IMG/VR virus record: IMGVR_UViG_3300044836_000005
Coordinates: 1 to 57,387 of that record
Reading direction: 5' to 3' (one strand)
From: a virus
Taxonomy: Duplodnaviria; Caudoviricetes
DNA: 57,387 bases
A program made the position numbers and the translations under genes. This document shows positions 9,307 through 51,363 of this stretch, piece after piece (the first letter of the stretch is position 1; every line of letters starts with the position of its first letter). The notes under the pieces were generated by a model. That model ran no database searches and had not been told where the DNA came from. It saw only the letters and a list, made by a program, of their open reading frames with translations.

Positions 9307-10189
9307 TTAATTTTCTCCGTGTTGGTGTAGTTGATTTAGAAACGGGTCGCCTTACTGCGGTAGCAGCCGTGGCGGTTTTATTGCCTGCTCGACGTTCGGC
9401 CCTAGCTTTATCAATCTTGCCAATAATCGTTGGCACGGTTGGATTATCTACGTGATGGCCTAGTGCATGGAATCTATCTTTTGCGGTGTACTTACCTTCT
9501 TGCACGAAAAGGCACCGACGGATTTTCTTTCCTTTATTATTTGGATCATCTACTAGTGACATATAAGAAACAACATTTGCATAACCGGCAATCAATGCCG
9601 GCATGTCTTTGCCTTGAATTGCTGGCACATAAACAATTTTTCCGTCGGGATCGGTGTCGCTAATTACGTGAGCACTCATACCGAAATTAATATCTAATTC
9701 ACAAAATTGTCTGACGTACCGAGCCAGTGTATTCATATTAATTAAATACTCTCGCATTGACGGAACGAATTCTTCCTGCCGTGGATTTTGTGCAACAACG
9801 TCCCGCATGATTTCGTCAATTAAAACACGGTTTTGGAAAAGCGTTAATCCGTCCCACCAAACTAATTTATATTCGCATGTTCCTTTCGCTAGAGTTGTTT
9901 TTAAGTGTTGGTAAACTTCCTCTACCTCATCGTAGGTGATTACCGATTTGCGGTGAGCCTTGGACCCTTGAGCCTCTGCGCTCTCTGCTCCGTGGTCGGA
10001 ATCCATGATAAGCGTTGTCGGTCCGCCAGTGCCAGCCAAGACGGTTTTACCAACCCCAGGATGAGAAAAGTTCAACCAATTAATTGTTTTTAGTTGGCTC
10101 TCTGCCGTATTGAGTTGCGTTACTCCCGAAAGGGTTGACGTTGCTCTAGCTGGAATCGTTGTACCGGCTCTAGGTTTTTGTGGTGGCAT
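9299..10189 (-). CDS. AAA-24/Sak4-like recombination ATPase
   Basis: Walker A SHPGVGKT; WWDGLT Walker B; AKDR motif. Confidence 0.8.
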   Translation of the reverse strand: MPPQKPRAGTTIPARATSTLSGVTQLNTAESQLKTINWLNFSHPGVGKTVLAGTGGPTTLIMDSDHGAESAEAQGSKAHRKSVITYDEVEEVYQHLKTTLAKGTCEYKLVWWDGLTLFQNRVLIDEIMRDVVAQNPRQEEFVPSMREYLINMNTLARYVRQFCELDINFGMSAHVISDTDPDGKIVYVPAIQGKDMPALIAGYANVVSYMSLVDDPNNKGKKIRRCLFVQEGKYTAKDRFHALGHHVDNPTVPTIIGKIDKARAERRAGNKTATAATAVRRPVSKSTTPTRRKLNG

Positions 10190-11175
10190 TAGTGATTTTT
10201 TTCCTCTCGCAATTCGTGAGCGTCATAAGGATTCCACGGCTTGAATTCATAATCAAGCACTGATTCGTAATCAGCACCGATCGAGTGCAATTCACACGGA
10301 ACCTTGAAAGCGCAATATCGGTCGCAATCTTCCATAGGATTTTTATAAATATCGAAGTCATTTTTTCTAGCTGCAATGACCTCCTTAGCCTCTTGCCGAA
10401 TGCGCCCGTCAATCTCCGCTAGTTGGTTCCCACCAACGTCTAACGGTTCACGGATGAACAATGGCGACGGTTGACGCTTGGAAATTGTGCCGTCCTTATT
10501 TAGACAATATCCATCCTTGTCTTTCGGTCGATCATCCGGTAAAGCCTTGCGAGCAACGTTAAACATTACGTGGTCAATTTCCTGGCCTGGCTTGAGGATA
10601 CCGAGCCGCAAAAGTTCAAGCCGTGCCGCCCATAGGTATGCCATGCCTTGATCGCCGTATCCAGAATTAATTTTCATGTTAGGAATTTGCTTGGCGGTTT
10701 TGTGTTCGATAATGCCGATACGCTTGTTTGCTTTATTGCGATAAACAACGTCAATCTGACATACGAACGTGCAAAGATATTTGCCATTCTCATCTAAAAC
10801 GTCAATCTGAATTGACATTTCCGGAGCAATGATTTCGATATGCTTTTCTAGGCCAAAGTGATCGACGTAACCTTCGGCCATCGCCAGGCCAAGCTCTAGA
10901 GCGTCAATCTTATTTCCCTGTTCATCCCATTGGGAAAATTGACGTTTATTGGCGGTATGCCACGCTTGGAACGTCTTAGCGGGATGCGTTCCCCGCTTGG
11001 TTCCCGGTATGTACCACTCAGCCATGCCAACGTGCCAGCCGGTCCCAAAGCTCAATGCGCCTTGGTACTGCCTCGGTTGCAAGCGTCGGTCATAGTTCCA
11101 TTGCCACCGCAGACGGCAACGTCGCCAAGTTGACCGCTCTGAATTACGAAGCGGGATATCTATTCGCCGTGGCAT
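10189..11175 (-). CDS. PD-(D/E)XK (Cas4/RecB-like) exonuclease
   Basis: CRLRW, FGTGWH, QIDV, EHKT, Q..AY and C-terminal C..YCAF..PC cluster. Confidence 0.85.
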   Translation of the reverse strand: MPRRIDIPLRNSERSTWRRCRLRWQWNYDRRLQPRQYQGALSFGTGWHVGMAEWYIPGTKRGTHPAKTFQAWHTANKRQFSQWDEQGNKIDALELGLAMAEGYVDHFGLEKHIEIIAPEMSIQIDVLDENGKYLCTFVCQIDVVYRNKANKRIGIIEHKTAKQIPNMKINSGYGDQGMAYLWAARLELLRLGILKPGQEIDHVMFNVARKALPDDRPKDKDGYCLNKDGTISKRQPSPLFIREPLDVGGNQLAEIDGRIRQEAKEVIAARKNDFDIYKNPMEDCDRYCAFKVPCELHSIGADYESVLDYEFKPWNPYDAHELREEKNH

Positions 11176-11225
11176 AACATCCTTTTCATTTTTCGAAGAT
11201 TCATTAATTCGCCGTACAATTAAAA

Positions 11226-11439
11226 ACTTAGTGCAAAGTTGAAACCGACACTAAGTATCTGCCAACTAGAAATGTTCTAGGGCTTATTTCAACTCTGCTC
11301 TAAATCTTTAATGTTAAAACTCGCTAGGGCAACCGGGGGAGGTTGTTATTCCCTAGCGAGTTTTATTTTTTGCTGCGTTGCACCAACACCAGAAGGTGAC
11401 ACCATCCCGGCAGGCGTTGCAATGGAACCTGCCGGGATG
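11226..11439 (-). ncRNA. Candidate structured leader or sRNA with at least three hairpins
   Basis: Inverted repeats at 11403-11439, 11316-11364 and 11226-11256 directly downstream of the promoter at 11443-11471. Confidence 0.5.
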
Positions 11440-11442
11440 AGC

Positions 11443-11471
11443 ACTCTACCGAGCGTCGGGCCGATCGTCAA
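11443..11471 (-). promoter_or_regulatory. Sigma70/SigA-type promoter P1
   Basis: TTGACG-17 bp-TAGAGT. Confidence 0.65.
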
Positions 11472-11474
11472 CCC

Positions 11475-12041
11475 CTACGAGAAAGGATCTTCGTCTACGG
11501 TGTCCTTGGCCTTGCGACCACGCTTGGCAGCCGTGGCAGGTGCGGCCTTGGTCGCTTTGGTGGCGGCCTTGGTGCTCTTACCGGCCGGCTTGGCCTTGGT
11601 GGCGGGCACGACGTTAGCAGCCGGACGGCCACGACGCTTGGCGGGCTCCGGAGTGGGAGCGGCCTTGGCCTTCCGACCGGCCGACTTCTGCGGAGTGGCG
11701 TTGGCGGCGGCGATTTGGTTCTTGCCAGTACCGGCAGGCCGACCACGCTTCTTCGGCACGTAGCCCTCACGCTCGGCAACCGGAACATACCGGGAGCCAG
11801 CCTCAGCCCGCTCGGCCCGATGAGCCTCACGCAAAGCTCGGTATTCGTCAGACTTTTTCCAATCTTCCCGAGTGAGGTACGCCATCGTGATTACCGATGC
11901 AGCGTCCATCTGCTCAAGATCCTCGCCGTAAGTATTAAGAATCCACTCTACCTGACCTTGGTGCAACCAAGTGGCCGGACGGTTGCCCTGGCCGGTGGAC
12001 TCTTGAACTTCCTCAACTTGCTTCGCCGCTTGCTTAGCCAT
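11475..12041 (-). CDS. Histone-like basic DNA-binding protein with AT-hook motifs
   Basis: Lys/Ala/Pro-rich tail with KKRGRPA and RRGRPA; start moved to ATG 12041 (AAGGA upstream and lying downstream of promoter P2). Confidence 0.7.
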   Translation of the reverse strand: MAKQAAKQVEEVQESTGQGNRPATWLHQGQVEWILNTYGEDLEQMDAASVITMAYLTREDWKKSDEYRALREAHRAERAEAGSRYVPVAEREGYVPKKRGRPAGTGKNQIAAANATPQKSAGRKAKAAPTPEPAKRRGRPAANVVPATKAKPAGKSTKAATKATKAAPATAAKRGRKAKDTVDEDPFS

Positions 12042-12088
12042 TTTAATATTTTCCTTTGTTTGTGGGTTGGTGTTGCTTCGTTGAAAGT

Positions 12089-12118
12089 ACATTAACAAAA
12101 ACGTAGATTCCTTGTCAA
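12089..12118 (-). promoter_or_regulatory. SigA-type promoter P2
   Basis: TTGACA-18 bp-TAATGT with upstream A/T tracts. Confidence 0.75.
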
Positions 12119-12167
12119 GCGATTCCTGAAAATTTCTTTCCAGACGGTTGCCTCCCGCTACAGAACC

Positions 12168-12261
12168 ACTCTAGGGGAATAATAAAGCTTATCGCATACG
12201 TGCGTGTTCTTACGTGTGTATGCGATAAGAGAAAAAATCCTCTTAGACTACTTTTTGGTAC
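12168..12261. repeat. Dispersed hairpin element, copy B (inverted relative to 50415-50531)
   Basis: Reverse complement reads GTACCAAAAAGTAGTCTAAGAG-10 nt-12 bp hairpin-CT-6 nt-TTCCCCTAGAGT. Confidence 0.85.
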
Positions 12262-12278
12262 ACGTAGTGTATAGGAAT

Positions 12279-14189
12279 TTATAAAGAATTTCTAGCCATA
12301 ATTTTTCGGCGAACATCAAGAATTGCTAAATGGTCGTCCAATTTTTCTAAACGTGATTCGGTCACGTCTTGGTCAATCGTGTTCATGGTTGCTAATGAGC
12401 ATACCGTAACTAAAGATTTTTTGTTAGCTCGGTGCGCTCGATCTTCAAACTGGATCATTTCATCCGGCGACCACGGTTCATCGAAAGCGATTACGTGATC
12501 GGCCGCTTGCAAGTTAATGGCGACTCCGCCGGCTTGCATGGTCATAACCATAATTTGATCTTTTCCCGAATTAAAATCATTCTCTAATTTTGTTCTTTGC
12601 CCTCGTTTGTTTTCCTTGCCAGTCAAGCGAGAAACTTTAAGACCTTTCTCCAGTAGGAATTCTACAATAACAGAAACCCATTCTTCAAACTGGCTCCCGA
12701 TAATTACTTGTGTGCCGTCGTCATAGGCTCCAATTTCATCTAGCCATTCATCCATCATATCAAGTTTGCACGAATTGGTAGTGGGTAGAAGTTTTCCGTT
12801 TTTGAATTCATGCAAGCCATTAGCAAATTGCCGTAGGCGCAAAAACTCAGTAAGAATCGTCGTCGTATATGTCTCGTCGTAAGCGCCTTCGGCTTCCATG
12901 CGCCGATACTGCGCTTCCTGCTCAGGCCCCATTTTGCAAAATTTAGTAATGGGAAGTTTATTCGGCAACCACGGAGCACATTCGGCCTTGGTCCTCCGCA
13001 GAATATACGGTTGCATTTCCCTATAAAAGATGGGCTTCTTTTCTTCCAACATCGGCCCAATGACATTGCCAAATCCGTTGTTAGAAACTTCAAAATACCG
13101 GAAGACAAAATTCCAATAGGCAGTAAAAACGTCAGGCCGTAGGTACTTCAAAGTACCGTAAATGTCGTGCCCGTTCTTCTTTTTCATAGGCGTTCCGGAG
13201 AGCGCCATCCGCTTCCCGTTTGCAGCAAGTTTCAAAGAATTAATCGACCATGCGCTAACGGTTTTGTGATTACGCACATTTCCTTTATGCACTTCGTCAT
13301 TTGTGATTGTATTCCACTTGACCTGAAAAAACTCAGGATATGCATAATTGTAATGCCAATGAAAGTTTGAGCCTTTACTGCATTTACACAATTTATTTTC
13401 GTCTTTTTTAATTTCTCCTGCGGTGGCCGCTCTTGTCATCGGCCCAGTATTGGTTTTATCTTTTTGAAATCTTACCATTTCCGAATTAACTACGATCCAA
13501 GCCGGACCGTCTGTATTCATAAATTCGTCAATGATTTTTTGCCGTTGTGCTCTCGTACCGGAGCAGACGAAAACCGGGTGCGGTTGCCATTGGTTCAACT
13601 CGTTCGGCCAAGTGGTTTCTACTGCCGCCTTCGGCGCAATGACCAATTGTTTCCCGTTGTCTAGCTTCGCTTCGAAGACGATAGCAACCGTCTCGATTGT
13701 CTTCCCTAGCCCTGGCTCAAGCCCATTGAGGAAGTGCGGAGCGTCCGCCCCGTAGCGCACATCGGCGGTTTGGTAGCTACCGTGCGGAGCCGCTAGAGCC
13801 GCTTTGCGTTCCTCCGGAGTCATATGCTTAGACAACGGACCGATATAAATTGCCTCGTATAATTTAGGTAATACGTGAGGCAAGACGGTTAGCTCTGCGT
13901 GATCGGCGATCGCAATTTTACCTAATTGATCCTCTTGCCGAACCGTGACGGTTGCCCAGTCTCGCACCTTCTGCGAGAGAGTGAGCCGTGAGCCAAAAAG
14001 CTCCCGCAATAAACGACAAGTACCCATATCCTTTGGGACCGTCCAGTGCCGATCTTCGCCCCGGTTCCACTTCCGGCCGGCAACCTTCTGCATAAGTTCT
14101 ACGTCGGCCTTAAATTCCGACTCGTTGCGGAATCCGCCGAACCGTAGAGAGATACGGTCCCCTTCAATGTCTAGCAGTACATTCGCCAT
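12279..14189 (-). CDS. SNF2-family DNA helicase
   Basis: EPGLGKT, DEVH, LSGTP, LRRTK, GGVAINL, QFEDRAHR. Confidence 0.93.
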   Translation of the reverse strand: MANVLLDIEGDRISLRFGGFRNESEFKADVELMQKVAGRKWNRGEDRHWTVPKDMGTCRLLRELFGSRLTLSQKVRDWATVTVRQEDQLGKIAIADHAELTVLPHVLPKLYEAIYIGPLSKHMTPEERKAALAAPHGSYQTADVRYGADAPHFLNGLEPGLGKTIETVAIVFEAKLDNGKQLVIAPKAAVETTWPNELNQWQPHPVFVCSGTRAQRQKIIDEFMNTDGPAWIVVNSEMVRFQKDKTNTGPMTRAATAGEIKKDENKLCKCSKGSNFHWHYNYAYPEFFQVKWNTITNDEVHKGNVRNHKTVSAWSINSLKLAANGKRMALSGTPMKKKNGHDIYGTLKYLRPDVFTAYWNFVFRYFEVSNNGFGNVIGPMLEEKKPIFYREMQPYILRRTKAECAPWLPNKLPITKFCKMGPEQEAQYRRMEAEGAYDETYTTTILTEFLRLRQFANGLHEFKNGKLLPTTNSCKLDMMDEWLDEIGAYDDGTQVIIGSQFEEWVSVIVEFLLEKGLKVSRLTGKENKRGQRTKLENDFNSGKDQIMVMTMQAGGVAINLQAADHVIAFDEPWSPDEMIQFEDRAHRANKKSLVTVCSLATMNTIDQDVTESRLEKLDDHLAILDVRRKIMARNSL

Positions 14190-14195
14190 GAGAGA

Positions 14196-14224
14196 ATCTT
14201 AATCTTAGCTCTCGTCGTTGTCAA
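14196..14224 (-). promoter_or_regulatory. Promoter P3, leaderless, for the SNF2 helicase
   Basis: TTGACA-17 bp-TAAGAT-6 nt-ATG(14189). Confidence 0.8.
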
Positions 14225-14414
14225 CCTCAGCCGGGATTAAAATTTCTAAGTCGGTATCTTTGGCGTGCTCGATAGCGTGGCCTGCCCATCGGATCATCTT
14301 GCAAGCTTGGACCTTCGTAAATCCCGCCGCCATGAGAGTTTTAATAATATCAAGTTCTATGCTCAAAACTTGCTGGCGAGTATTTGACCACTGTTCCGGA
14401 GTAAAAGTTTTCAT
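14205..14414 (-). CDS. Hypothetical protein
   Basis: 69 aa; ATGA coupling with upstream ORF. Confidence 0.6.
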   Translation of the reverse strand: MKTFTPEQWSNTRQQVLSIELDIIKTLMAAGFTKVQACKMIRWAGHAIEHAKDTDLEILIPAEVDNDES

Positions 14415-14689
14415 ATGTTTTCCAATCCGTTTTTCTTGAGATTGTCGTAAGCCTTTTTAACGTTCCGATATTTTACCATTACCTCTAGCGGATCGCAAGT
14501 CGGGCTTTCAACTTCTTTAATATAATCTCCCGTCCAGTTAATGAGCACTCTGGCTCGACGTAAGTCGGCCTTTACCTTGACCAATTCTTTATTACGGTCA
14601 ATTTTCATTTTCGGCGGATCACCTGCCTTAGCTCTTGAATACTTAATCTTACTGCGTGGTTCCCCTTGTGTCCAGCGAACCGCCGACAA
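14411..14689 (-). CDS. Hypothetical protein
   Basis: 92 aa ORF filling the gap in the minus-strand operon; start uncertain. Confidence 0.55.
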   Translation of the reverse strand: MSAVRWTQGEPRSKIKYSRAKAGDPPKMKIDRNKELVKVKADLRRARVLINWTGDYIKEVESPTCDPLEVMVKYRNVKKAYDNLKKNGLENI

Positions 14690-14726
14690 ATTCTACGATT
14701 TTTCCCGAACCTCTTGCCGCACCTGT

Positions 14727-15386
14727 TCATGCTGGCACCATTTCCACTTCGCAAGCATCTTCCATACAAATTACGTCAATGTTTTCTCTGCGGTGGTGGA
14801 TTGTGAAGCCACAACTAGGGCAAATGAATTTGTTTAGTTTACGTGGTTTAGGCTTTTCAGCTTGTCCCGGCAACTTAAATTGTGCCAACAAATCAGTTAG
14901 GTCGGAATTCTCGCTTACCCAATCGTGCCATACCTCCGTGTGGTCTACGTGGTTGCCTTTCCGGCCGCTAGTGATAATCCCGTAGTTACCCATTTTGTTA
15001 TGAAATTCGTCAGTATGGAAATTGCGTTTACATGGTCGGCCGACAAATGTTTGCCACATATGCACCACTTCATGTATCGCCGTTTCTGCAGCTTGCATAC
15101 CGTTCTCGTGTGCATACGGATTTAAGTTAATTCGGTTGACCATCCGGTAACCGTCTTGGCTCTGATAAAAGCCCATTCTAGAGCTTGAATCTTTATCCAT
15201 AGAAATTACTGGATAAGGAAAATTCCTTTCATCATAAAATCTGTCGATGGTTCGGTCAACGAATTCATGTAGAAGCTTAAAGAATAAACCTAGCTCTTTA
15301 TCCTGCTCTTGGAATGCCCTAAGATTTTGCGTTAATTGAGCAGCGCTAATATTAGCGATTGTTTTCCCAGATTTTTTTGTCGGCAC
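14727..15386 (-). CDS. SprT-like zinc metalloprotease
   Basis: HEVVH zincin motif, downstream H..EF, C-terminal CPSC...C....C zinc ribbon. Confidence 0.8.
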   Translation of the reverse strand: MPTKKSGKTIANISAAQLTQNLRAFQEQDKELGLFFKLLHEFVDRTIDRFYDERNFPYPVISMDKDSSSRMGFYQSQDGYRMVNRINLNPYAHENGMQAAETAIHEVVHMWQTFVGRPCKRNFHTDEFHNKMGNYGIITSGRKGNHVDHTEVWHDWVSENSDLTDLLAQFKLPGQAEKPKPRKLNKFICPSCGFTIHHRRENIDVICMEDACEVEMVPA

Positions 15387-15594
15387 GGTCCCTCACAATC
15401 CTAAAGATTTCGATTTGCGGAATATGTGTAATAATTCCAAGGGCAATAATTATTGTTCTAACTTTAACGTCATTCTCAATTTTTTCTTTATTGGTAGTTT
15501 TAGATGATCGACTCTCTATCAAATAATGTTGCGCTAATGTTAACAATTCTTCGACTTCCGGAGCTTTCAGGGTTGCTAGTGGGTTGGTTGCCAT
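15352..15594 (-). CDS. Hypothetical protein
   Basis: 80 aa; GAAGGA upstream of ATG. Confidence 0.6.
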   Translation of the reverse strand: MATNPLATLKAPEVEELLTLAQHYLIESRSSKTTNKEKIENDVKVRTIIIALGIITHIPQIEIFRIVRDRADKKIWENNR

Positions 15595-15686
15595 CGGTAA
15601 ATCCTTCGATCCTGCTAGGTAGGTGAATTTTGTACGCTCTCGCTAAGGCTGGCGGCCGGTTACCGCCAACCTTGCGAAACAATGAC

Positions 15687-16316
15687 TCAGAGCGTCCGGC
15701 AGTGCGGACCCATTCCAGCCGCCCGGCTCGCATCATCGGTCAAGTGCCGATTGCATCGGTAGCAACGGCCAATTTCGGTTGCGTAAAGCATTCCAGCGGC
15801 CTTGACGCCATAGTCTTCGATCCTGCGGAGCACTCGCCCTACATCGGCCTTGCGGACCGGCAAATCGGCATGACCGCCGACCACTCGCTTAAGGAAGGTG
15901 TATCCACTCCACTTGCCATCGGTCGGCCGCTGAATCATAAAGAAATCAAGATCATTATTGCCGGTCACGCTTGGTACTGCGTAGTAACCCTCTGGCACTA
16001 CTGCGGAGGTAGGATCGGCGGAGGTTTCACGCTTCGGAAGCTCAAGCAATTTCTTAATCAAATCGCTTGCATTTTGACTGGTCAGCCGATCTACCGGAGC
16101 GAAAATCATTTCGTCTGTCATCCGGTCAACTCGCAAATTTGCAATAAATTCGATTTGCTTTTCCGACGCCATCCGGACCGGAGCAACCGGAGTGCTCTCG
16201 ATAGTGGCAACCGCTGCATACTCGCTAACGGTTACTCCCTTGTGGCAATCCCGAACCTCGTTGACCGAACCGTGGAATCCCTGGCAGTTTCCGCACTTAA
16301 TGATTGTCATGGTCAT
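15687..16316 (-). CDS. DUF6011-like zinc-binding protein
   Basis: C-terminal CYRCNRHLTDDASRAAGMGPHC; internal VPEGYYAV. Confidence 0.75.
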   Translation of the reverse strand: MTMTIIKCGNCQGFHGSVNEVRDCHKGVTVSEYAAVATIESTPVAPVRMASEKQIEFIANLRVDRMTDEMIFAPVDRLTSQNASDLIKKLLELPKRETSADPTSAVVPEGYYAVPSVTGNNDLDFFMIQRPTDGKWSGYTFLKRVVGGHADLPVRKADVGRVLRRIEDYGVKAAGMLYATEIGRCYRCNRHLTDDASRAAGMGPHCRTL

Positions 16317-16347
16317 TTTTCATCCTTCATGTTTCGCCGTTGAAAGT

Positions 16348-16377
16348 ACCTTACCGGATATCCCGTAGAGCCGTCAA
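16348..16377 (-). promoter_or_regulatory. Promoter P4
   Basis: TTGACG-18 bp-TAAGGT followed by ACTTTCAAC, as in P2. Confidence 0.7.
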
Positions 16378-16398
16378 GCCCTACCGGAAAATTTCTTT

Positions 16399-16671
16399 TC
16401 AATCGTTCCAGTTGAACGAGGCAAGCGGAGCGTTAGAGCCAACCGCAGTGAGGTAGATCGGATGAACGGTGCCCGTTCCAGCTTCCGACCAATTTGCACG
16501 CTCCGTAGCGTCGATGAGGCTAAAGAACCGCTCAGGCGTCATTTCGGCCAAGCTCACCAAAATCACATCGGTGTCCAACTTAGCAAGCACATTGACGAGA
16601 GTGCGGAGTGCAACTCCGGAACCATCGTAAGCGTAGGTGTATCGGGCTTGAGTGGGGCGGGTGGTTTCCAT
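16399..16671 (-). CDS. Hypothetical protein, leaderless
   Basis: 90 aa; ATG 6 nt after the -10 of P5. Confidence 0.75.
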   Translation of the reverse strand: METTRPTQARYTYAYDGSGVALRTLVNVLAKLDTDVILVSLAEMTPERFFSLIDATERANWSEAGTGTVHPIYLTAVGSNAPLASFNWND

Positions 16672-16677
16672 GCCTTC

Positions 16678-16705
16678 AATCTACTACGGGATATCCAGAA
16701 GTCAA
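16678..16705 (-). promoter_or_regulatory. Promoter P5, leaderless
   Basis: TTGACT-16 bp-TAGATT-6 nt-ATG. Confidence 0.7.
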
Positions 16706-16737
16706 TACAATTTCTAAAGAAATTCGGGATGAATCTG

Positions 16738-16800
16738 AAAAAATTTAAGGGGTCGGTTCGGCCCTCCCTCACCAGCGGTCCCGCCGTGTCAGCCCTTGAT
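16738..16800 (-). ncRNA. Candidate small RNA of about 63 nt
   Basis: Follows promoter P6 with no ATG; GC-rich; AAGGG/CCCTT end pairing; ends in a T6 tract. Confidence 0.5.
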
Positions 16801-16807
16801 AAACTTA

Positions 16808-16836
16808 AGATTACCTGACACCTTCCCAGGTGTCAA
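16808..16836 (-). promoter_or_regulatory. Promoter P6 with overlapping palindrome
   Basis: TTGACA-17 bp-TAATCT; perfect inverted repeat TGACACCT-N4-AGGTGTCA at 16816-16835. Confidence 0.75.
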
Positions 16837-16851
16837 GCAATTTCTTAAGAT

Positions 16852-17022
16852 TTAACCTTCGCCTTCGGTCAACTCGTACCACTTGGCTCCGAGCCGCCTA
16901 CCATCGGCCAGCACTAGCTCGCAATCGAAGTAGGTCGTATCGGTGCGTTGTGAACGCTCTACCGTTCCAACGAAACCGGCATGGTCTGTGAAGTGTGCGG
17001 TAACTCCGTAGGTGTTTTCCAT
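16852..17022 (-). CDS. Small hypothetical protein (56 aa, not in the ORF track), leaderless
   Basis: MENTYGVTAHFTDHAGFVGTVERSQRTDTTYFDCELVLADGRRLGAKWYELTEGEG; ATG 6 nt after the -10 of P7. Confidence 0.7.
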   Translation of the reverse strand: MENTYGVTAHFTDHAGFVGTVERSQRTDTTYFDCELVLADGRRLGAKWYELTEGEG

Positions 17023-17028
17023 GCCTGT

Positions 17029-17057
17029 ATCTAACCACGCTGGCCGAAAACTGTCAA
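17029..17057 (-). promoter_or_regulatory. Promoter P7, leaderless
   Basis: TTGACA-17 bp-TTAGAT with extended TG, then 6 nt and ATG. Confidence 0.7.
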
Positions 17058-17077
17058 GCGATTTCTAAAGATTTTCT

Positions 17078-17153
17078 TGGTGTCCCTAGTCGGATTCGAA
17101 CCGACACTGAAACGATTTTAAGTCGTTTGCCTCTGCCGTTGGGCTATAGGGAC
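17078..17153 (-). tRNA. tRNA-Leu(TAA)
   Basis: Acceptor GTCCCTA/TAGGGAC; anticodon arm AACGA-CTTAAAA-TCGTT; TTCGAAT T-loop; encoded CCA; short variable loop. Confidence 0.93.
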
Positions 17154-17157
17154 TAAG

Positions 17158-17231
17158 TGCGTCCGGTCGGAATCGAACCGACAACCTAATGATTAAAAGT
17201 CATTTGCTCTAACCAATTGAGCTACGGACGC
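17158..17231 (-). tRNA. tRNA-Lys(TTT)
   Basis: Acceptor GCGTCCG/CGGACGC; D arm GCTC/GAGC; anticodon arm AATGA-CTTTTAA-TCATT; CCA not fully encoded. Confidence 0.95.
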
Positions 17232-17243
17232 TTAGTGGCAACC

Positions 17244-17420
17244 TCAATAGGTACCACCTTTTAACTCAAAATCTTTACATTCAAAATGGCGCTTCTGCGG
17301 AGGCAGGTTGCGGAGCTTGATAAACTTAAACGTTTGCCCTTTTTTGATTTCCTCTCCACAAGCGTCACAAGGTCCGTGATCGAACCTAGCCTTTTTAGTA
17401 ACATAAACTTTAACCGGCAT
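17244..17420 (-). CDS. Small zinc-finger-like protein
   Basis: CDACGEEIKKG...HFEC; likely start MPVKVY with AGGAAG upstream. Confidence 0.55.
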   Translation of the reverse strand: MPVKVYVTKKARFDHGPCDACGEEIKKGQTFKFIKLRNLPPQKRHFECKDFELKGGTY

Positions 17421-17592
17421 TTTGTGACTTCCTGTTCTTGTAATCAATTGATGCGAAAACCACAATGCAGATAATCGTAAAAATTATTGACAAAGCAATT
17501 ACGTCACTAAGCCAAAGGTTCGGCACTGTCAGCAGTGCGGCCAGATAGCAAAATGCAAAGATAATTGCAATTCGCTTACTTGAAAAATTCAT
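17410..17592 (-). CDS. Small membrane protein
   Basis: 60 aa with two hydrophobic segments; GGAGG ribosome site. Confidence 0.65.
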   Translation of the reverse strand: MNFSSKRIAIIFAFCYLAALLTVPNLWLSDVIALSIIFTIICIVVFASIDYKNRKSQNAG

Positions 17593-17735
17593 TGTTCCCT
17601 CCCTTCAAATGCATAAAGTGCTCGGCGCATATTTTCATAATAAATTCTCCTTAGCGCATAGTCTGGCGCTTTGTCGTTATCTCTTTCATTGATATAAAAC
17701 TTAACTGCTTCTGCCAACTTTTCGGCATCATCCAT
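17589..17735 (-). CDS. Small hypothetical protein (48 aa, not in the ORF track)
   Basis: MDDAEKLAEAVKFYINERD...; TAATG and ATGA overlaps with its neighbours. Confidence 0.6.
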   Translation of the reverse strand: MDDAEKLAEAVKFYINERDNDKAPDYALRRIYYENMRRALYAFEGREQ

Positions 17736-17935
17736 TAATCAGTCCGCCAATAATACATTTCAACTACATTACCGGGATAAGTAATTTCTACTACAGATGC
17801 CGTTTTCATCATCTCCCAAATAGGAGCCGGACAGGTGCTATCAATAACTTGGCGATGATTAGAAAGAACACCAAGCCGATGGCTCTTAAACATTAACCGC
17901 TTTTTAACATCTACCGGAACCATATCCGCTACCAT
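17735..17935 (-). CDS. Hypothetical protein
   Basis: 66 aa; AAGGGG ribosome site. Confidence 0.6.
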   Translation of the reverse strand: MVADMVPVDVKKRLMFKSHRLGVLSNHRQVIDSTCPAPIWEMMKTASVVEITYPGNVVEMYYWRTD

Positions 17936-18035
17936 CGTCGTCCCCTTTTCATTCTATAACTTTCATATTTGGCACATAAGATTCCCACGATAAACAATAT
18001 CGCTAGAATTATTAGGTCAGTCCATCTTTGATCCA

Positions 18036-18752
18036 TTAGTGAACCTCGCGAATCCACTTGACTTTAACACAACGATAACCGCCAGTATCCCTTTGCGTAA
18101 ATTCTACTGCCATATCGCATGGTTCCCGTTCGCCAGTTTTAATGTCAAGTTGATTGTAAATAAATCCTCTGACTTCTGCTACTTGGATTTCCTCGTACCA
18201 AAGATAATCTTTCCCGATACTTCGCTCAACTACGATGGTCCGATGAGAAATTGCTGTACGAATTTCGATTTCGTCGTCATCGTCGTCCCAATAAATTTGA
18301 AGCGCCGATACCGTGTCAACGACTCCCGAGCCCTTTTTAGCTCTAGTGGTTGTCTCGGTTGCTTCTGGATCTCGGCCGGTAAGCTCCGCATACGCTCGCT
18401 TTGCAGTAGGGCCAGAGCCTAGGCCAAGCATCTTGGCGACTTGCGACCAAGCTCTACCTTCGGTGTCCCTAGCGTGTTCGATTTGTTCTTTAGTGCAAGT
18501 AATTTCTCTTGGCTTGCGTCCTCGTTTGCCAGGGCTTGCCGATCCGGAAATCAGAGAGTTTTTCTTAGGTTTCCGGATCGGACTTTTAGCCAATTGGGGC
18601 TTAGGTTGTGTTTTTGCCAAAATTGGTTTAGCTATAGTTGTTTGTTTCCGCTCTATTGGCTTTATCAATTTTGGCAGAGGTTTTAGGGCATGATTGGTTG
18701 GCTCCTTTCGTGGCTCGCCCTTCTTGGTCGGGGAGAATCTTAGCGGCTTCAT
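18036..18752 (-). CDS. Putative HTH DNA-binding protein
   Basis: Basic Pro/Lys N-terminus, KRGRKPR, HTH-like AWSQVAKMLGLGSGPTAKRAY; start set at the ATGA overlap. Confidence 0.55.
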   Translation of the reverse strand: MKPLRFSPTKKGEPRKEPTNHALKPLPKLIKPIERKQTTIAKPILAKTQPKPQLAKSPIRKPKKNSLISGSASPGKRGRKPREITCTKEQIEHARDTEGRAWSQVAKMLGLGSGPTAKRAYAELTGRDPEATETTTRAKKGSGVVDTVSALQIYWDDDDDEIEIRTAISHRTIVVERSIGKDYLWYEEIQVAEVRGFIYNQLDIKTGEREPCDMAVEFTQRDTGGYRCVKVKWIREVH

Positions 18753-19051
18753 GCGAATTTCTCCGCAATACGCATGATGCACAAGTGATCCCAGTGCCGA
18801 ACCGGCTCGTTGTCACCGGCAAGGTACAATTCCGGCCGACGGCCAATCAATTCGTTGCACTCATCAATTGCGGCTCGGATATCGTCAGCGATTCGGAATG
18901 GCGTGCCACCAAACAACAAACAGGCGATTTCGCACATACCATCGAATTTTGCATTTGCGAGCTTCATATCTACCGGCCGCTTTTGGATCAGCCGGCCGAA
19001 TTGGTGATAGAGCTTCGAAGCAATTTCCATTTGGTTGGTCAAGGTTTCCAT
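18749..19051 (-). CDS. Hypothetical protein, leaderless
   Basis: 100 aa; ATG 6 nt after the -10 of P8. Confidence 0.75.
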   Translation of the reverse strand: METLTNQMEIASKLYHQFGRLIQKRPVDMKLANAKFDGMCEIACLLFGGTPFRIADDIRAAIDECNELIGRRPELYLAGDNEPVRHWDHLCIMRIAEKFA

Positions 19052-19057
19052 ATTCTT

Positions 19058-19086
19058 AAGTTACTCCCTGCTAGTTTCGGTGTCAA
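19058..19086 (-). promoter_or_regulatory. Promoter P8, leaderless
   Basis: TTGACA-17 bp-TAACTT-6 nt-ATG. Confidence 0.75.
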
Positions 19087-19326: not shown

Positions 19327-19403
19327 GACTTCCGGCAACATTTCTGCGAGAAACTTCGTTTTCCCTGGTCAGCCGCCATCTTTGGAAAATCTTTAGAAAG
19401 TGT

Positions 19404-19433
19404 TTGACACTTACTGGGTATCCGTGGTTAGAT
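19404..19433 (+). promoter_or_regulatory. Promoter P10, leaderless
   Basis: TTGACA-18 bp-TTAGAT-ATCTCC-ATG(19440). Confidence 0.7.
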
Positions 19434-19439
19434 ATCTCC

Positions 19440-19676
19440 ATGACCTCACCTCGCAAGACACTCAAGCTGCAAGACCTCATCGTACATATCAACGGAATTC
19501 TTGAAAATTCCACGGATGATATGCAGCAGGCTCGCCATGCTGTAGCCTCGGTGCTTGAGACACAATTGATGAACGCAAATGTTTACAAGGGTTTCAAATA
19601 CATTGGCGAGGGCAACGAAGCTGGCCAGATTGATGACTCTCGCCGTGCCTATTACCTACACTGGATTCTACTTTAG
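19440..19676 (+). CDS. Hypothetical protein (78 aa), leaderless
   Basis: MTSPRKTLKL...; first gene of the only plus-strand operon. Confidence 0.75.
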   Translation: MTSPRKTLKLQDLIVHINGILENSTDDMQQARHAVASVLETQLMNANVYKGFKYIGEGNEAGQIDDSRRAYYLHWILL

Positions 19677-19682
19677 GGAGAA

Positions 19683-19877
19683 ATGATGAAAAATAACAGT
19701 AAACTGCGGAAGCAGCAACGGAGGGCCGATGCCGAAACTAGGCAAGCTCACTGGGAGGGCTTGACCAATTTAGAAAAAGTTGCAATTCTTAAGCGTCGGC
19801 ATGGTGAAAGAGATTATATGTATTGTCGGGAATATCAAAAGATGCTAAGTGAACAGGATAACGCTTATGCCTCGTGA
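19683..19877 (+). CDS. Hypothetical basic protein
   Basis: 64 aa; GGGAG ribosome site. Confidence 0.7.
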   Translation: MMKNNSKLRKQQRRADAETRQAHWEGLTNLEKVAILKRRHGERDYMYCREYQKMLSEQDNAYAS

Positions 19878-19989: not shown

Positions 19990-20000
19990 CCATAAACAAC

Positions 20001-20042
20001 AAAAAGCCCTAGTTCCGGAGCAATCCAGAGCTAGGGCTTTTT
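20001..20042. terminator. Bidirectional intrinsic terminator
   Basis: AAAAAGCCCTAG...CTAGGGCTTTTT between convergent operons. Confidence 0.85.
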
Positions 20043-20061
20043 GCGTTATGCTATTAAATAT

Positions 20062-32611: not shown

Positions 32612-32957
32612 CTATCCCGTCTTTTCATCTTTTGTGGACTTGCTCGCCGTTGACATTGTTGATGGATCACGGAAGCTTGATTCTTTATTAATCGTCCGCA
32701 AATCCGTTATAAAATTACCGTCTTTATCTTCCATACCACGCAAAATAACTTTTAGCTTTTCGAGCTTCAATTTCTCTGCGTTTTTACCAGTTATTTTTTC
32801 AAGCTCTTGAATAACCGAGTTGGCATATAGACTTACGGCTTGATCGAAACAAAAAGCAACGTAAGTATCTTCAATATCCATTAATTCACTCGGACGTATT
32901 CCCCATTGCTTCGCTTCGTGAAATGTCATCCATAACATCGTCCTGTTGTTTACGAAA
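32612..32957 (-). CDS. Tail assembly chaperone, C-terminal (frameshifted) segment
   Basis: Overlaps the end of 32886-33359 in the +1 frame; WGIRPSELMDIED..AFCFDQAV. Confidence 0.65.
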
Positions 32958-35958: not shown

Positions 35959-36387
35959 TTAACCGTTCTCTGATTGGTCGAGAGCGTCAACCAATTGTTC
36001 TTTATCCATCGAAGAATAACCCTCGATGCCACGGCTCCGAGCCAGTTTCTTTAACTGGCCAACGTGCATTTGGTTTAGATCCTGCTCTGAATCGCTTGCA
36101 GTCGGATCTTTGGTGCTTTCGTTCTGCCGAATAAGTCGCTCCTGCGGAGTGAGAACGCCCGGCACTTGAACGTCAGCCGCTTCGGTTTCCGTAGTAAGCA
36201 ACGGATCATCAGCAACCGAACCAACATCACCAGTATTGGGAGCAACGTTGCTCGCATAACCGGGATGCGACGGCTGTAGACGCTCCGGAACTTCATAACC
36301 TGCGGGGAGTTGATTACGACTCATCAAATAAAGGATATCGTCATCACTAAACGACTCCGGTTTTGATAAATCTACTTTACGAGACAT
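35959..36387 (-). CDS. Protein with a C-terminal Rho-N-terminal-like (HeH) domain
   Basis: LNQMHVGQLKKLARSRGIEGYSSMDKEQLVDAL. Confidence 0.75.
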   Translation of the reverse strand: MSRKVDLSKPESFSDDDILYLMSRNQLPAGYEVPERLQPSHPGYASNVAPNTGDVGSVADDPLLTTETEAADVQVPGVLTPQERLIRQNESTKDPTASDSEQDLNQMHVGQLKKLARSRGIEGYSSMDKEQLVDALDQSENG

Positions 36388-36415: not shown

Positions 36416-36457
36416 GTCGGTCGGTACTGCCACGGCGAAGAAACAGTACCGACCGAC
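36416..36457 (-). terminator. Stem-loop after the major capsid gene
   Basis: 14 bp perfect inverted repeat GTCGGTCGGTACTG/CAGTACCGACCGAC. Confidence 0.7.
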
Positions 36458-38099: not shown

Positions 38100-38879
38100 T
38101 TAACGGCGCAAAGCCGGGTATTGCTCCATGAGTTTGGCATCGTCAAACTCACCTTTTTTGCCTTTTTTACCATTACCGGAGCGGCCACTGGCCTGCCTCG
38201 TCGGCTCGGTATCATCGTCGGTTTCGTCATCGTCGTCGGAATCTTTATTTTTAGATTTCTTCGGTTTTACGAAACCCGGCTTGGCTTTAACAAAAGCCTC
38301 AACTGCGTCATCTAGTCCGGAGACGCTTCCGTCCTTCTCAATTTCAATATCGTCACTATAGCGCCTAAGCACAAGCTCAAGCACATCTTCGGTGTCAACG
38401 TTGAAACGATATTCCTTTGCGTCAATGACGTCACGGAATTTCTGACCAATAGCTAGTGATCGGTTGGTGCTTTCAAGCTCCGTGATCCGGCTCTTTAGCT
38501 CATCCCGCTCTTTTGTGACCTGTTCAAGTTCCGGCTTGTCTTTATTCTTAATTTCATTCAGCTCTTTTTCGAGCTTTTCCGCCCGCTCCCTAGCTTCCCT
38601 TGCAGCTAACCGACGACGCTTATTCTCTGCAATAAGGCGTTCTTTTTCGAAATCCTTTTTAGGATCTTTCTTATCTTTTGATTTCTTATCTTCTACTTCA
38701 TCGTCGTCTTCATCGTCGTTGTCATCATCATTATTTTCATCATCATCATTTTGGTCATCGTCGTTGTCTTGTTCATCATCGGCCGGCATACCAGCTAATG
38801 ATTCTGTTTTGAAAGCGAAGCGCAAATCAAAAGGATCGGCTCGCCGTACTAACTCTAGGATTTCGTCTTTGGTCTTCAC
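38100..38879 (-). CDS. Scaffolding protein
   Basis: Acidic tracts, coiled coil, C-terminal YPALRR; synteny. Confidence 0.8.
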   Translation of the reverse strand: MKTKDEILELVRRADPFDLRFAFKTESLAGMPADDEQDNDDDQNDDDENNDDDNDDEDDDEVEDKKSKDKKDPKKDFEKERLIAENKRRRLAAREARERAEKLEKELNEIKNKDKPELEQVTKERDELKSRITELESTNRSLAIGQKFRDVIDAKEYRFNVDTEDVLELVLRRYSDDIEIEKDGSVSGLDDAVEAFVKAKPGFVKPKKSKNKDSDDDDETDDDTEPTRQASGRSGNGKKGKKGEFDDAKLMEQYPALRR

Positions 38880-38900
38880 TTTTTTCTCCTGTTGATTTGG

Positions 38901-39749
38901 TTAATCTTCACTTGAAACATAATCATCGTAGTCACCGGCTTTAAGTGACTTAATAAACTTTTCTCTAGGGACGGTTTCTACGGTTAGGTAACAAAAGCAT
39001 TGTGGGTGAGGTCTGTCCGGAACCTCACCTTTATTGTAAGTGCCGACTAAATCGTTACATTCATCGGGACGCGGATGGGAACCGGAAAGGTTCCATACAA
39101 AAGATTCAACCCAAGGCTTTTCTTGAGCCAAATCAATTGTCATTTGGTGATGGGCGTTATTAATTTCTGTGCGAGCCAAACGTCTTGCTGCATATGCGGC
39201 TCCACCTGGCACATCGGCTGAATAAAAATCTCGCACTGCGTTGGCAAGTTCTTTTGCTCCGGTTTGCAAAGCAAGGTGCTGTTCAATAATTTTTCCGACT
39301 TGCTTAACTGTGACACGACCATTCGCATAAATTCTCTCAGACAAAGTAAAACCATGCGTGCGACGTGCGACAATTGCCCTCGCTCCTGCCTCAGCTCTAG
39401 TATAAATACCTCTTTCATAATTCTTAATAATAGCTTGAGGCATACCCAGCTTACTATCGTATGAAAGACTTTGTTTAGCGGCCAATTCCGTCGCACTGGA
39501 TATCCCTACTTTCGTAACTTGTTCAATATTCAGCCACATTTCTTTTGATAATGGGCCTAAGCCTTTTGCGACCTCCGCAATGCGAGCAGCCTGCCCGCCT
39601 TTTAACGCATTTTCTGCAATGATGCGATGGGCGGATTTACTAGCTTGGTTCAAAATATCTGCAAGCTCTTGATTATAGATTCCTTCCGTTAATCGAAGCG
39701 GTTGGACCAACCCATATTGCCGTGAAAGCTCGTCCGCCCGAATTGCCAT
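38901..39749 (-). CDS. MuF-like minor head protein
   Basis: RRLARTE, WNLSGSHP..DEC, HPQCFC. Confidence 0.8.
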   Translation of the reverse strand: MAIRADELSRQYGLVQPLRLTEGIYNQELADILNQASKSAHRIIAENALKGGQAARIAEVAKGLGPLSKEMWLNIEQVTKVGISSATELAAKQSLSYDSKLGMPQAIIKNYERGIYTRAEAGARAIVARRTHGFTLSERIYANGRVTVKQVGKIIEQHLALQTGAKELANAVRDFYSADVPGGAAYAARRLARTEINNAHHQMTIDLAQEKPWVESFVWNLSGSHPRPDECNDLVGTYNKGEVPDRPHPQCFCYLTVETVPREKFIKSLKAGDYDDYVSSED

Positions 39750-47613: not shown

Positions 47614-47895
47614 TTACGTTGTCCTCACGTCAAACTGACCTTTGTCGTACAGGCCAGCCTCAACATTTTTTTGATATTGCTCAGCCTCAGTGAGCAGACC
47701 ATTCATGTTTGTATCTACTAATTCTTCATCAATGGTAAGAGGTAAAGCGTCGCCATCCTCCACTCCAAATAAATAAAGATTGCGTAGACGCTCACTCGGT
47801 GTCGGCTCATGGAAAGGCTGAAGCATGTTTCCTTGCACTTGGCCACCATACTCAGAAGCGGGCCAAGTGCTTTCTTTAGCTCCGAGCTTTGCCAT
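47614..47895 (-). CDS. Hypothetical protein
   Basis: 93 aa; TAATG coupling. Confidence 0.65.
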   Translation of the reverse strand: MAKLGAKESTWPASEYGGQVQGNMLQPFHEPTPSERLRNLYLFGVEDGDALPLTIDEELVDTNMNGLLTEAEQYQKNVEAGLYDKGQFDVRTT

Positions 47896-48140
47896 TACTG
47901 TGCAGCCCTTGGTTCAATCATTGGAAGTGAAACAGTAATTTCTGTTCCTACTTCTGGCAGAGTCGGCGGGTCGAGAAGGTCAGTAATCCAAATAGGAATA
48001 TACATATTTCCGCCATCACCTAATACCGGCTGACCGTCGGCGGTAATGCAAATGACTCCACATACCGGAGTACCCCATGATGGTTGCCAGATATCCAAAG
48101 GTGGCATATCAATTCTTTGCACAACAAAAGTAACGTCCAT
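47895..48140 (-). CDS. Hypothetical protein
   Basis: 81 aa; GAGGT ribosome site. Confidence 0.65.
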   Translation of the reverse strand: MDVTFVVQRIDMPPLDIWQPSWGTPVCGVICITADGQPVLGDGGNMYIPIWITDLLDPPTLPEVGTEITVSLPMIEPRAAQ

Positions 48141-48753: not shown

Positions 48754-49107
48754 CTACTGGTGATAGTTCGTTACTTCGTAGACACCAAGGTGAACAGTCG
48801 GCGGATTCTTACAAATAGGACCGTCCCAAATCTCAATGACACTCTCTCCATACTTGCTATGACCATGAGCCGTTAGTTGTAATGATTGGAAGTCAGGGCC
48901 AGATAAACTTAAAGATTCGCCACGCTTAGCAGGTGTATACCACGCTGCATTGTAGGTAGGTAGCTCTCCGTCTGACATGCGACCACTACCACAAAAGGTA
49001 ATTACTGCCGCATGTCTAATCGTCGGCTCTTGAGTCTTCCCGTTACCCGCACACATAGTCGTGCTTGCTGCAAGTGCCAGTGTGGCGAGCGTAGTTTTAA
49101 TAATCAT
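48754..49107 (-). CDS. Putative secreted or lipoprotein-like protein
   Basis: Signal-like MIIKTTLATLALAASTTMC. Confidence 0.55.
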   Translation of the reverse strand: MIIKTTLATLALAASTTMCAGNGKTQEPTIRHAAVITFCGSGRMSDGELPTYNAAWYTPAKRGESLSLSGPDFQSLQLTAHGHSKYGESVIEIWDGPICKNPPTVHLGVYEVTNYHQ

Positions 49108-49430: not shown

Positions 49431-49537
49431 TTAATTATCCCACCTTTTCTGATTGATACGACGCAATAGCTCTAACACAGAATCAGCGATTGCATCACCA
49501 TTGGCCTTGTCTCGCCTACGTTTCTCGTCGGAATCAA

Positions 49538-50333: not shown

Positions 50334-50414
50334 GTTTTACCACTTTTCCTTCTCTCACAAGAGTTTTAGATTCTTTATAATCTCAGCAAATAATTCAATC
50401 CCTCGCACGCCCCC

Positions 50415-50531: not shown

Positions 50532-50549
50532 CACTCTGAGAGCGCGAGG

Positions 50550-51339: not shown

Positions 51340-51363
51340 GATTTACCCTCCCTCGCTTGCCGT

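Follow-up and report, generated by a model that had tools for sequence, protein, structure and literature searches.

Twin long hairpins beside the helicase and RuvC-like genes of an actinophage-like virus genome, read tentatively as transcript-boundary elements

Why does a virus genome carry two copies of one long intergenic hairpin, one beside a helicase gene and one beside a resolvase gene, facing in opposite directions? The question is raised by positions 12168-12261 (copy A) and 50415-50531 (copy B) of IMG/VR record IMGVR_UViG_3300044836_000005 (Caudoviricetes). The whole virus record (57,387 nucleotides, nt) was analysed and is called the window, or G000 in comparisons with other genomes. 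An earlier note on this DNA had described the two stretches as twin elements, each made of two boxes, spacers of fixed length and a hairpin, and this layout was confirmed: box 1 is identical between the copies at 21/22 positions and box 2 at 12/12, the parts stand in the same order with spacers of exactly the same length, and only the central loop differs (18 versus 41 nt). Judged from sequence and gene position, the two hairpin stretches probably form a conserved control or replication signal. The best reading, to which a probability of about 0.37 was given, is that they are long hairpins at transcript boundaries, serving termination and/or processing, with a lower stem that is specifically recognised.

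Chance was considered first. Box 1 with up to 3 mismatches was found in the genome at these two sites only, and 0/100 shuffled sequences gave a match; box 2 with up to 1 mismatch was likewise limited to the two sites (0.12 expected; 0/100 shuffles with two or more). The pair was the top dispersed repeat chain genome-wide, with 35 nt in exact 11-mers in inverted orientation, and each of five block shuffles gave 0 chains. Copy B was the longest of 65 local inverted repeats in the genome (42-nt arms, 74% complementary). The palindrome and pair finders were ad hoc and miss imperfect elements, and a self-alignment palindrome scan did not separate the two elements from plain terminators. These results support a real, selected two-copy cis system and not a chance repeat.

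Similarity between the loci reaches about 220 bp, roughly 12289-12070 against 50370-50600, of which 12168-12289 and 50370-50531 were covered by 11-mer chaining and the remainder by pairwise alignment of the loci. The extended part consists of an 11-mer upstream of the boxes, the motif TCTG.AGCG.GAGG after box 2, and about 70 further bases of weaker likeness. Since the DNA beyond copy B aligns weakly with the promoter region of copy A, copy B looks like an inverted paralogue of the whole intergenic module of copy A, its promoter part decayed and its boxes kept. Copy A starts 17 nt past the stop codon of the helicase gene. Copy B ends 82 nt upstream of the start of the RuvC-like gene, and its extended hairpin starts 5 nt past the stop codon of open reading frame (ORF) 50550-51125.

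Folding was examined within and between the copies. All 12 pairs of the central stem of copy A are Watson-Crick pairs, and the stem of copy B, in the orientation used in the earlier note, has ten Watson-Crick pairs, one G-U and one C-A. The stems differ at 5/12 pairs. The claim that these changes are mostly compensatory holds for three pairs, changed on both sides and still paired; of the other two, one became a wobble and one a mismatch, which is a G-U pair in the opposite orientation. With copy A on the plus and copy B on the minus strand, the consensus fold contains 29 pairs at -30.75 kcal/mol, with four double-sided changes kept paired, three one-sided changes and none that breaks a pair; the opposite orientation gives 27 pairs, four of them compensatory, at -20.95 kcal/mol. 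The covariation rests on two sequences and its statistical power is low. The former fold is one long hairpin of three helices: P1 (CAGAR with UUUUG), P2 (UCUAGGGG with CUCUUAGA, including two G-U pairs) and P3, the central stem. The boxes form its lower stem, which is common to the copies while the interior varies, as in the relatives described below. Base pairing in the hairpin thus appears to be under selection, and we infer that sequence-specific selection also acts on the lower stem, because gene conversion would homogenise long tracts and would not leave a mosaic of 10-nt pieces. Assignment of the transcribed strand by G-U content was tried and dropped, being confounded by base composition.

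Conservation by position was assessed in distant relatives. Neither locus gave a blastn match in 50,697 phage records, the exact box patterns were absent from the viral, metagenome and genome contig collections, box words were missing from the fetched relatives apart from one stray 10-mer in locus L007, and single-protein locus searches for close relatives found nothing; the nearest helicase homologue is 47% identical. Relatives were reached through the helicase alignment as ten virus records, G001-G010, nine of them whole and G004 as 20,000 of 20,961 bases. Pairs of large quasi-palindromes with arms shared inside the genome were found in 4/10 (G002, G003, G005 and G007), whose helicases are 30-35% identical to that of the window and whose elements measure 90-200 nt. 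One copy of each of these pairs precedes the homologue of the RuvC-like gene by 20-125 nt. The other lies past the helicase stop codon, at 0-5 nt in G005 and G007, 0.8 kb in G003 and 1.7 kb in G002, and always ahead of the exonuclease gene where one exists. A large palindrome directly after the helicase gene, with no partner seen, was present in G001, in G006 (locus L009) and in fragment L012; none of this kind was detected in G004, G008, G009 or G010. All elements examined fold as long extended hairpins, and their lower-stem sequences are common to both copies of a genome and entirely different between genomes. A covariance model built from copies A and B matched the window only (four matches, being the two copies on both strands) in 48 sources totalling 687,617 nt, and the arm pattern of the G002 element matched G002 alone. 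The elements of the relatives are analogues by position and architecture, not detectable homologues. With the position conserved in such distant genomes, the earlier view of a selected two-copy system was upheld.

The same comparison bears on the reading that the copies are selfish miniature palindromes of the miniature inverted-repeat transposable element, enterobacterial repetitive intergenic consensus (ERIC) or Correia kind, settled in permissive gaps. ERIC and Correia elements are imperfect palindromes of 100-150 bp that occupy transcribed gaps in either orientation and fold in the messenger RNA (mRNA), in tens to hundreds of copies at non-conserved sites. The size of 90-200 bp, the inverted terminal arms, the intergenic location in either orientation and the likeness of copies within a genome would all suit such an origin. 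Here, however, exactly two copies stand at conserved gene boundaries: the same two boundaries are occupied in five genomes with helicases 30-35% identical, each time by a different sequence, no transposase was found in the Pfam scan, and the boxes and arms are absent elsewhere in the viral, metagenome and genome collections. The conserved positions refute this reading in large part, and it was judged very improbable.

The relative orientation of the copies was determined by aligning the two copies of each genome both ways and comparing the scores. They are inverted in the window (direct 24, inverted 56) and in G005 (49 and 85), direct in G002 (119 and 34), and ambiguous in G003 (66 and 81) and G007 (59 and 54). 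Because the window and G002 share the same overall gene order and differ in the relative polarity of the copies, opposite polarity is not conserved, and the idea that the pair depends on it was not supported. Models that need it, among them inversion sites, polar barriers and strand-specific origins acting as a pair, are disfavoured by the variable orientation. The copies were also considered as recombination sites, which would invert the 38 kb (or 19 kb) of DNA enclosed by them, or as packaging signals. Inverted repeats of 22 and 12 nt are present, and the structural module of G003 is encoded on the opposite strand and has one boundary at the RuvC-side copy. No recombinase, integrase, invertase or transposase family was found, however, among 83 distinct ORFs compared with Pfam (58 + 26, one scanned twice) or among 38 ORFs compared with PHROGs, the copies are direct in G002, and all genes of the window lie on one strand. 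The copies stand 7 and 12 kb from the terminal repeat and at least 3 kb from the terminase genes, which speaks against packaging. Both proposals were left as scarcely credible.

The reading as transcript-boundary hairpins was preferred on the following evidence. Read on the minus strand, which is the mRNA strand, a T-rich tract stands behind each central hairpin (CTTTATTATT in A, CTGTTTTTCT in B, each 7/10 T), despite the inversion, and this accounts for spacers of the same length and differing sequence. Together with the promoter match after copy A, the tract points to a transcript boundary. Also in favour are the stop codons just ahead of copy A and of the extended copy B hairpin, and the compensatory changes in the consensus fold. 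The hairpin still forms in RNA when a copy is flipped, which fits the variable orientation. Paired long hairpins stand at the same two boundaries in G002, G003, G005 and G007, and relatives without pairs carry ordinary terminator-like hairpins at the corresponding places: a plain one upstream of the RuvC-like gene in G008, and others in the helicase-exonuclease gaps of the phages Damien, GOATification and Gibson. In the gaps examined of these three and of PBI1, ordinary hairpins only were seen and no large pair.

Under the proposed mechanism, A and B would be paralogous copies of one intergenic module, each a quasi-palindromic hairpin of about 130-150 nt. Boundary A would lie after the SNF2 helicase gene and ahead of the recombination and replication operon, and boundary B before the RuvC-like resolvase gene and the downstream packaging and structural genes. 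The central stem with the U-rich tract on the mRNA strand would most likely end or pause transcripts, and in read-through RNA the full hairpin, with its lower stem formed by the boxes, may act as a processing or 3'-end-protecting structure. Because the lower stem is near-identical between the copies while the upper stem drifts with compensation, the lower stem would also be read sequence-specifically, either by a phage factor or by pairing between the two transcripts. Termination or processing, like the trans factor, is what we infer from this architecture.

Several observations weigh against this mechanism. The hairpins (90-200 nt, branched, with central loops of 17-41 nt) are far larger than the plain terminators at 20000-20043 and 36416-36457, and terminator consensus scans of 11000-13000 and 49500-51500 flagged neither copy. 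In place of a G+C-rich stem with a short loop of 3-8 nt, loops of 18 nt (A) and 17-41 nt (B) are present and 5/12 pairs of the A stem are G-C. The strand evidence is confounded, in that sense windows of the genome generally fold better (mean 4.7 kcal/mol, standard deviation 6.5; 77% of 81 windows), and the difference between sense and antisense folding across 13 elements was of mixed sign. A signal of structure alone would leave unexplained both the box identity (21/22 and 12/12), set against a central stem that differs at 5/12 pairs, and the genome-specific shared lower stems. As the copies are inverted, their mRNAs carry complementary and not identical boxes, so that an RNA-binding factor could recognise both by sequence only through the near-palindromic character of the lower stem. 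Finally, the G003 elements have a U-rich arm upstream and an A-rich arm downstream on both strands, and those of G001, G002 and G007 have no U tract.

Known systems resemble the pair in part. Intrinsic terminators, including bidirectional ones, share the stem and the U-rich mRNA-strand tract close behind a stop codon (at A, a promoter comes next), and the A tract upstream and U tract downstream of copy B recall bidirectional terminators; they differ in that the present elements have loops of 17-41 nt, total 130-150 nt with the outer stem, carry sequence-conserved outer boxes and were negative in the consensus scan. The RNase III hairpins of phage T7 are long, irregular and intercistronic, with internal loops, occur several times per genome, are alike within it, and serve at transcript boundaries and in 3'-end protection. 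The window's hairpins share the length, irregularity, intergenic place and within-genome likeness, but arms of the present type are wholly different between related phages, which a requirement for host RNase III would not predict. The nutL/nutR sites of lambda and putL/putR sites of HK022 (15-70 nt) lie downstream of promoters and must be in sense orientation. Like them, the present elements occur as two copies per genome, combine a hairpin with a conserved box, hold fixed places in two operons and are phage-specific in sequence; unlike them, a copy is flipped in the window and in G005, the promoter of copy A is downstream and not upstream, and no N- or Q-like protein is known.

A different account places the function in DNA: the copies would be stem-loop replication origins, or a main origin and an auxiliary site, with the lower-stem boxes as the binding site of a phage protein, the A/T tracts as the region of melting, and a hairpin on single strands or a cruciform as the entry point for the primase-helicase. 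Boxes alike within a genome and different between genomes are the pattern expected of initiator-origin co-evolution, a bidirectional origin works regardless of orientation and so fits direct and inverted cases, and the central hairpins of both copies are flanked by pure A/T tracts, of which the one at the 10-nt spacer is a T tract in A and an A tract in B, equivalent in duplex DNA and not in RNA. Several elements are AT-richer than their genomes (G+C 0.42 versus 0.60 in G001, 0.42-0.46 versus 0.52 in G005, 0.45 versus 0.56 for the RuvC-side copy of G007, and 0.41 versus 0.52 in L012), but those of G002 and L009 are not. The phage encodes a primase-MCM fusion and a Pol III alpha, and no initiator was identified in the Pfam scan. 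A large hairpin follows the helicase gene in the window, G001, G002, G003, G005, G006, G007 and L012, although the neighbour is the SNF2 helicase and not the primase-MCM. P4 (ori and crr) and SPP1 (oriL and oriR) each use two distant cis sites built of iterons and one phage replication protein, and the orientation of the second site is not critical; the window shares with them two distant cis sites per genome and differs in having long hairpins, with no iterons seen.

A closer precedent is the plasmid pRN1. According to its report (PMC4234260), replication of this plasmid depends on a 100-nt stem-loop that lies directly past the replication-protein gene, needs its structure and works when moved, and similar stem-loops are mentioned by the authors in some phages. 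The present elements resemble it in length (about 100 nt there), in their place just downstream of a replication or helicase gene and in the weight of structure over loop sequence, the pRN1 element being position-independent; pRN1 has one copy and a prim-pol/SF3 protein (PMC4234260), whereas here two copies are present, the DnaG-MCM fusion is encoded elsewhere and the neighbour is SNF2. Replication origins would not explain why the second one stays beside the RuvC-like gene through genome rearrangements, nor do they predict that each hairpin should be succeeded by T-rich sequence on the mRNA strand, and G003 has a pair and no detectable primase-MCM homologue. GC skew was uninformative for origins because all genes lie on one strand. 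This account has real support and ranked second among the explanations, but was judged rather unlikely.

Inversion of the copies on one coding strand also makes their mRNAs complementary over 21/22 and 12/12 nt, and an interplay of the two RNAs was weighed on this ground. The 3' untranslated region of the helicase mRNA (copy A: box 1, then the terminator hairpin) and the leader of the RuvC-like mRNA would pair and so couple helicase and resolvase expression; in a variant, each copy would be transcribed alone as a small RNA from a shared TATAA(A/T) element. The sense transcripts of G005 are complementary over about 75 nt, and where the copies are direct, their common palindromic arms likewise render the transcripts complementary to each other. 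Trans-acting small RNAs usually consist of a conserved 5' segment, a covarying hairpin and a U tail. The shared 11-mer places TATAA(A/T) 16 and 33 nt upstream of box 1, and at copy B the promoter score is 10/12 (CTCACA-16-TATAAT), but no -35 element is common to the copies; read on the minus strand at copy B, the 11-mer (TTATAAAGAAT) is also a possible -10 element ahead of the RuvC-like gene. Box 2 lies downstream of the U tract and is nevertheless identical in the two copies, intramolecular pairing in the hairpins would be in competition with pairing in trans, and the element has no Rfam match and no covariance-model match outside the window in the 48 sources. In Rfam, the whole window at gathering thresholds gave two transfer RNAs (tRNAs) only, and permissive scans of both loci gave sub-threshold small nucleolar RNA and microRNA hairpin matches only. 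An RNA-RNA function was held to be improbable. A promoter reading of the boxes was rejected: there are two copies only, copy B is not directed towards any gene, and the copies lack a common -35 element.

The neighbouring genes suggest one further account, in which the copies are programmed cruciform sites: the SNF2 motor would extrude the palindromes, the RuvC-like resolvase would cut them, and breaks at two fixed places would feed the exonuclease and Sak4 recombination and start or restart recombination-dependent replication. SNF2 motors can extrude cruciforms in vitro that junction resolvases then cut. One copy lies by the SNF2 gene and the other by the RuvC-like gene in five genomes, although operon boundaries explain this adjacency equally well, and the six ORFs that G003 shares with the window by blastp include the SNF2 helicase and the RuvC-like protein. 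A HARP domain was found by Pfam in the N-terminal region of 2/34 aligned helicase homologues (best E 3.1e-7), while the window's own helicase protein alone gave no HARP match; A/T tracts flank the hairpin. The RuvC-like protein has no Pfam family and no PDB sequence match. By tblastn it resembles, at about 30% identity, proteins of Mycobacterium, Gordonia and Rhodococcus phages that carry the annotation RuvC-like resolvase, and D26, E119, K164, H184 and D187 are invariant across six homologues. Its structure model (predicted local distance difference test score, pLDDT, 74.5) gave RuvC proteins as all of the top nine Foldseek PDB hits (E 1.9e-4 to 1.9e-3), which supports a predicted RuvC fold with conserved acidic residues. 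Large loops and mismatches disfavour extrusion, however, resolvases are structure-specific and would leave box conservation unexplained, and relatives with both genes and no large pair exist (G008, G010 and the named actinophages). Cruciform cutting was therefore rated as quite improbable, as was, at the same low confidence, the view that the pair, the SNF2 motor and the RuvC-like resolvase make one functional module.

The features of the window and the pairs of the relatives are collected in Table 1. The two ends of the record form a direct repeat of 245 bp (1-245 and 57143-57387, 99.6% identity, one mismatch), and counting it once gives a genome unit of about 57.1 kb, in which the distance between the copies is about 38.2 kb in one direction and about 18.9 kb in the other; the spacing of about 19 kb across the junction given in the earlier note was thereby borne out. 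The record is classed as 'linear, 89% complete', yet looks like a complete genome with terminal redundancy. ORF calls were mechanical, and all plausible genes lie on the minus strand. The gaps that hold the copies (237 and 216 nt) are the fifth and sixth largest of 19 gaps above 60 nt. No reverse transcriptase was found among the annotated ORFs of the genome.

Table 1. Positions of the copies, their parts, neighbouring features and counterparts in paired relatives.
Genome	Feature	Position	Strand	Remarks
G000	Copy A core	12168-12261	-	Inspected sequence
G000	Copy A box 1 (22 nt)	12240-12261	-	GTACCAAAAAGTAGTCTAAGAG
G000	Copy A 10-nt A/T tract (N10)	12230-12239	-	
G000	Copy A central hairpin, 12-nt arms	12218-12229 and 12188-12199	-	18-nt loop
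G000	Copy A CT + 6-nt A/T tract	12180-12187	-	
G000	Copy A box 2 (12 nt)	12168-12179	-	TTCCCCTAGAGT
G000	Copy A conserved tail	12151-12167	-	GGTTCTGTAGCGGGAGG; counterpart in copy B CACTCTGAGAGCGCGAGG
G000	11-mer near copy A	12279-12289	-	ATTCTTTATAA; overlaps helicase stop codon; shared with copy B
G000	Sigma-70-like promoter, TTGACA-N18-TAATGT	12089-12118	-	Downstream of copy A; pattern match
G000	Copy B core	50415-50531	+	Inverted relative to copy A and flanking genes
G000	Copy B box 1	50415-50436	+	
G000	Copy B A/T tract	50437-50446	+	
G000	Copy B central hairpin, 12-nt arms	50447-50458 and 50500-50511	+	41-nt loop; extendable to 23-nt arms 50448-50470 and 50488-50510
G000	Copy B CT + A/T tract	50512-50519	+	
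G000	Copy B box 2	50520-50531	+	
G000	Copy B tail and apparently decayed counterpart of copy A promoter region	50532-50600	+	Overlaps 3' end of opposite-strand ORF 50550-51125
G000	11-mer near copy B	50370-50380	+	ATTCTTTATAA; minus-strand reading TTATAAAGAAT
G000	Rpf-like transglycosylase, pyrophosphatase, ThyX, small ORFs	57.3 to 50.5 kb	-	Upstream of copy B in transcription order
G000	P0107 ORF	50550-51125	-	Ends 5 nt before extended copy B hairpin
G000	RuvC-like Holliday-junction resolvase gene	49728-50333	-	phrog_1981, tblastn, fold model
G000	RuvC-like gene, then terminase, portal, head, tail, lysis genes	Down to ~20 kb	-	After copy B
G000	548-nt gap with plain bidirectional terminator-like palindrome	~20 kb		Palindrome 20000-20043
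G000	Small ORFs, two tRNAs, SNF2 helicase		-	Between 548-nt gap and copy A
G000	SNF2-family helicase gene	12279-14189	-	Pfam; directly before copy A
G000	P0106, first gene after copy A	11475-12041	-	N-terminal domain, Lys/Ala/Pro-rich tail, two RGRP motifs, acidic tip DEDPFS
G000	P0106, PD-(D/E)XK exonuclease, Sak4-like protein, primase-MCM fusion, Pol III alpha, sigma-region-4 protein		-	After copy A
G002	RuvC-side copy	9734-9861		
G002	Helicase-side copy	53271-53402		
G003	RuvC-side copy	38832-38956		
G003	Helicase-side copy	54707-54842		
G005	RuvC-side copy	47859-48058		
G005	Helicase-side copy	32683-32829		
G007	RuvC-side copy	11595-11688		
G007	Helicase-side copy	53226-53317		

P0106 has a homologue, 37% identical, at the same place in G001, which ends in EDDPFE; the tip of P0106 resembles the C-terminal tip of SSB, and its RGRP motifs are AT-hook-like. 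P0107 gave no family match and no homologue in the relatives compared. The gap ahead of the exonuclease gene (11176-11474, minus strand, 299 nt) contains a promoter-like TTGACG-17-TAGAGT. Behind it stand three strong hairpins, with a stem of 12 bp at 11403-11439, a stem of 15 bp at 11315-11365 and arms of 26 nt at 11219-11312, and the whole could be a structured leader or a terminator cluster.

Host-type promoter patterns gave seven intergenic matches, one of which is the promoter after copy A, all on the minus strand and within 11.4-19.1 kb (11443-19086), several with an AGAAAT..GCTTGAC motif upstream. This cluster suggests that early genes in that part are read by host RNA polymerase and that a different promoter type is used elsewhere. 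None of the seven lies in the 20-57 kb part, and a phage protein with sigma region 4 is encoded at 489-1052. A second inverted non-coding pair was observed at 17028-17076 (promoter on the minus strand) and 19385-19434 (promoter on the plus strand), facing opposite directions. The two resemble early-type promoters (TTGACA, 17-18 nt, TTAGAT) and have the motif GAAAATCTTTAGAAA upstream in common. From the plus-strand promoter, small rightward ORFs (19404-19877) would be transcribed as far as the terminator at 20000-20043, making this the one candidate for a plus-strand unit in the genome.

The two tRNAs, tRNA-Leu(TAA) and tRNA-Lys(TTT) at 17078-17231, both serve A/T-ending codons. The G+C content is 45%, yet the genes present are of actinophage type: an Rpf-type transglycosylase and DUF6011 are encoded, and the RuvC-like protein and the helicase have relatives in actinobacteriophages. 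A small ORF past the head genes (35959-36387) matched the Rho_N domain (E 1.6e-7). In G008 (locus L184), the contig end at 49068-49166 is a perfect fold-back of about 41 bp and represents an artefact of assembly or, alternatively, a hairpin terminus.

No description of such a hairpin pair was found in the literature searched, nor in Rfam. In the window and its relatives, phages with few other genes in common, paired long hairpins are conserved beside helicase and resolvase genes and evolve together, and under either an RNA-level or a DNA-level reading the phage-specific lower stem and the free upper stem predict a specific recognition partner. If the hairpins are programmed cruciforms, the module would be a natural counterpart of the in vitro assay that combines SNF2, a cruciform and a resolvase. 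As origins or programmed cruciforms, the hairpins would reveal how replication begins in phages whose replisomes contain Pol III alpha and a primase-MCM. If, as preferred here, they act as transcript gates, they would make temporal control accessible to study in a large group of uncultured viruses that resemble actinophages.

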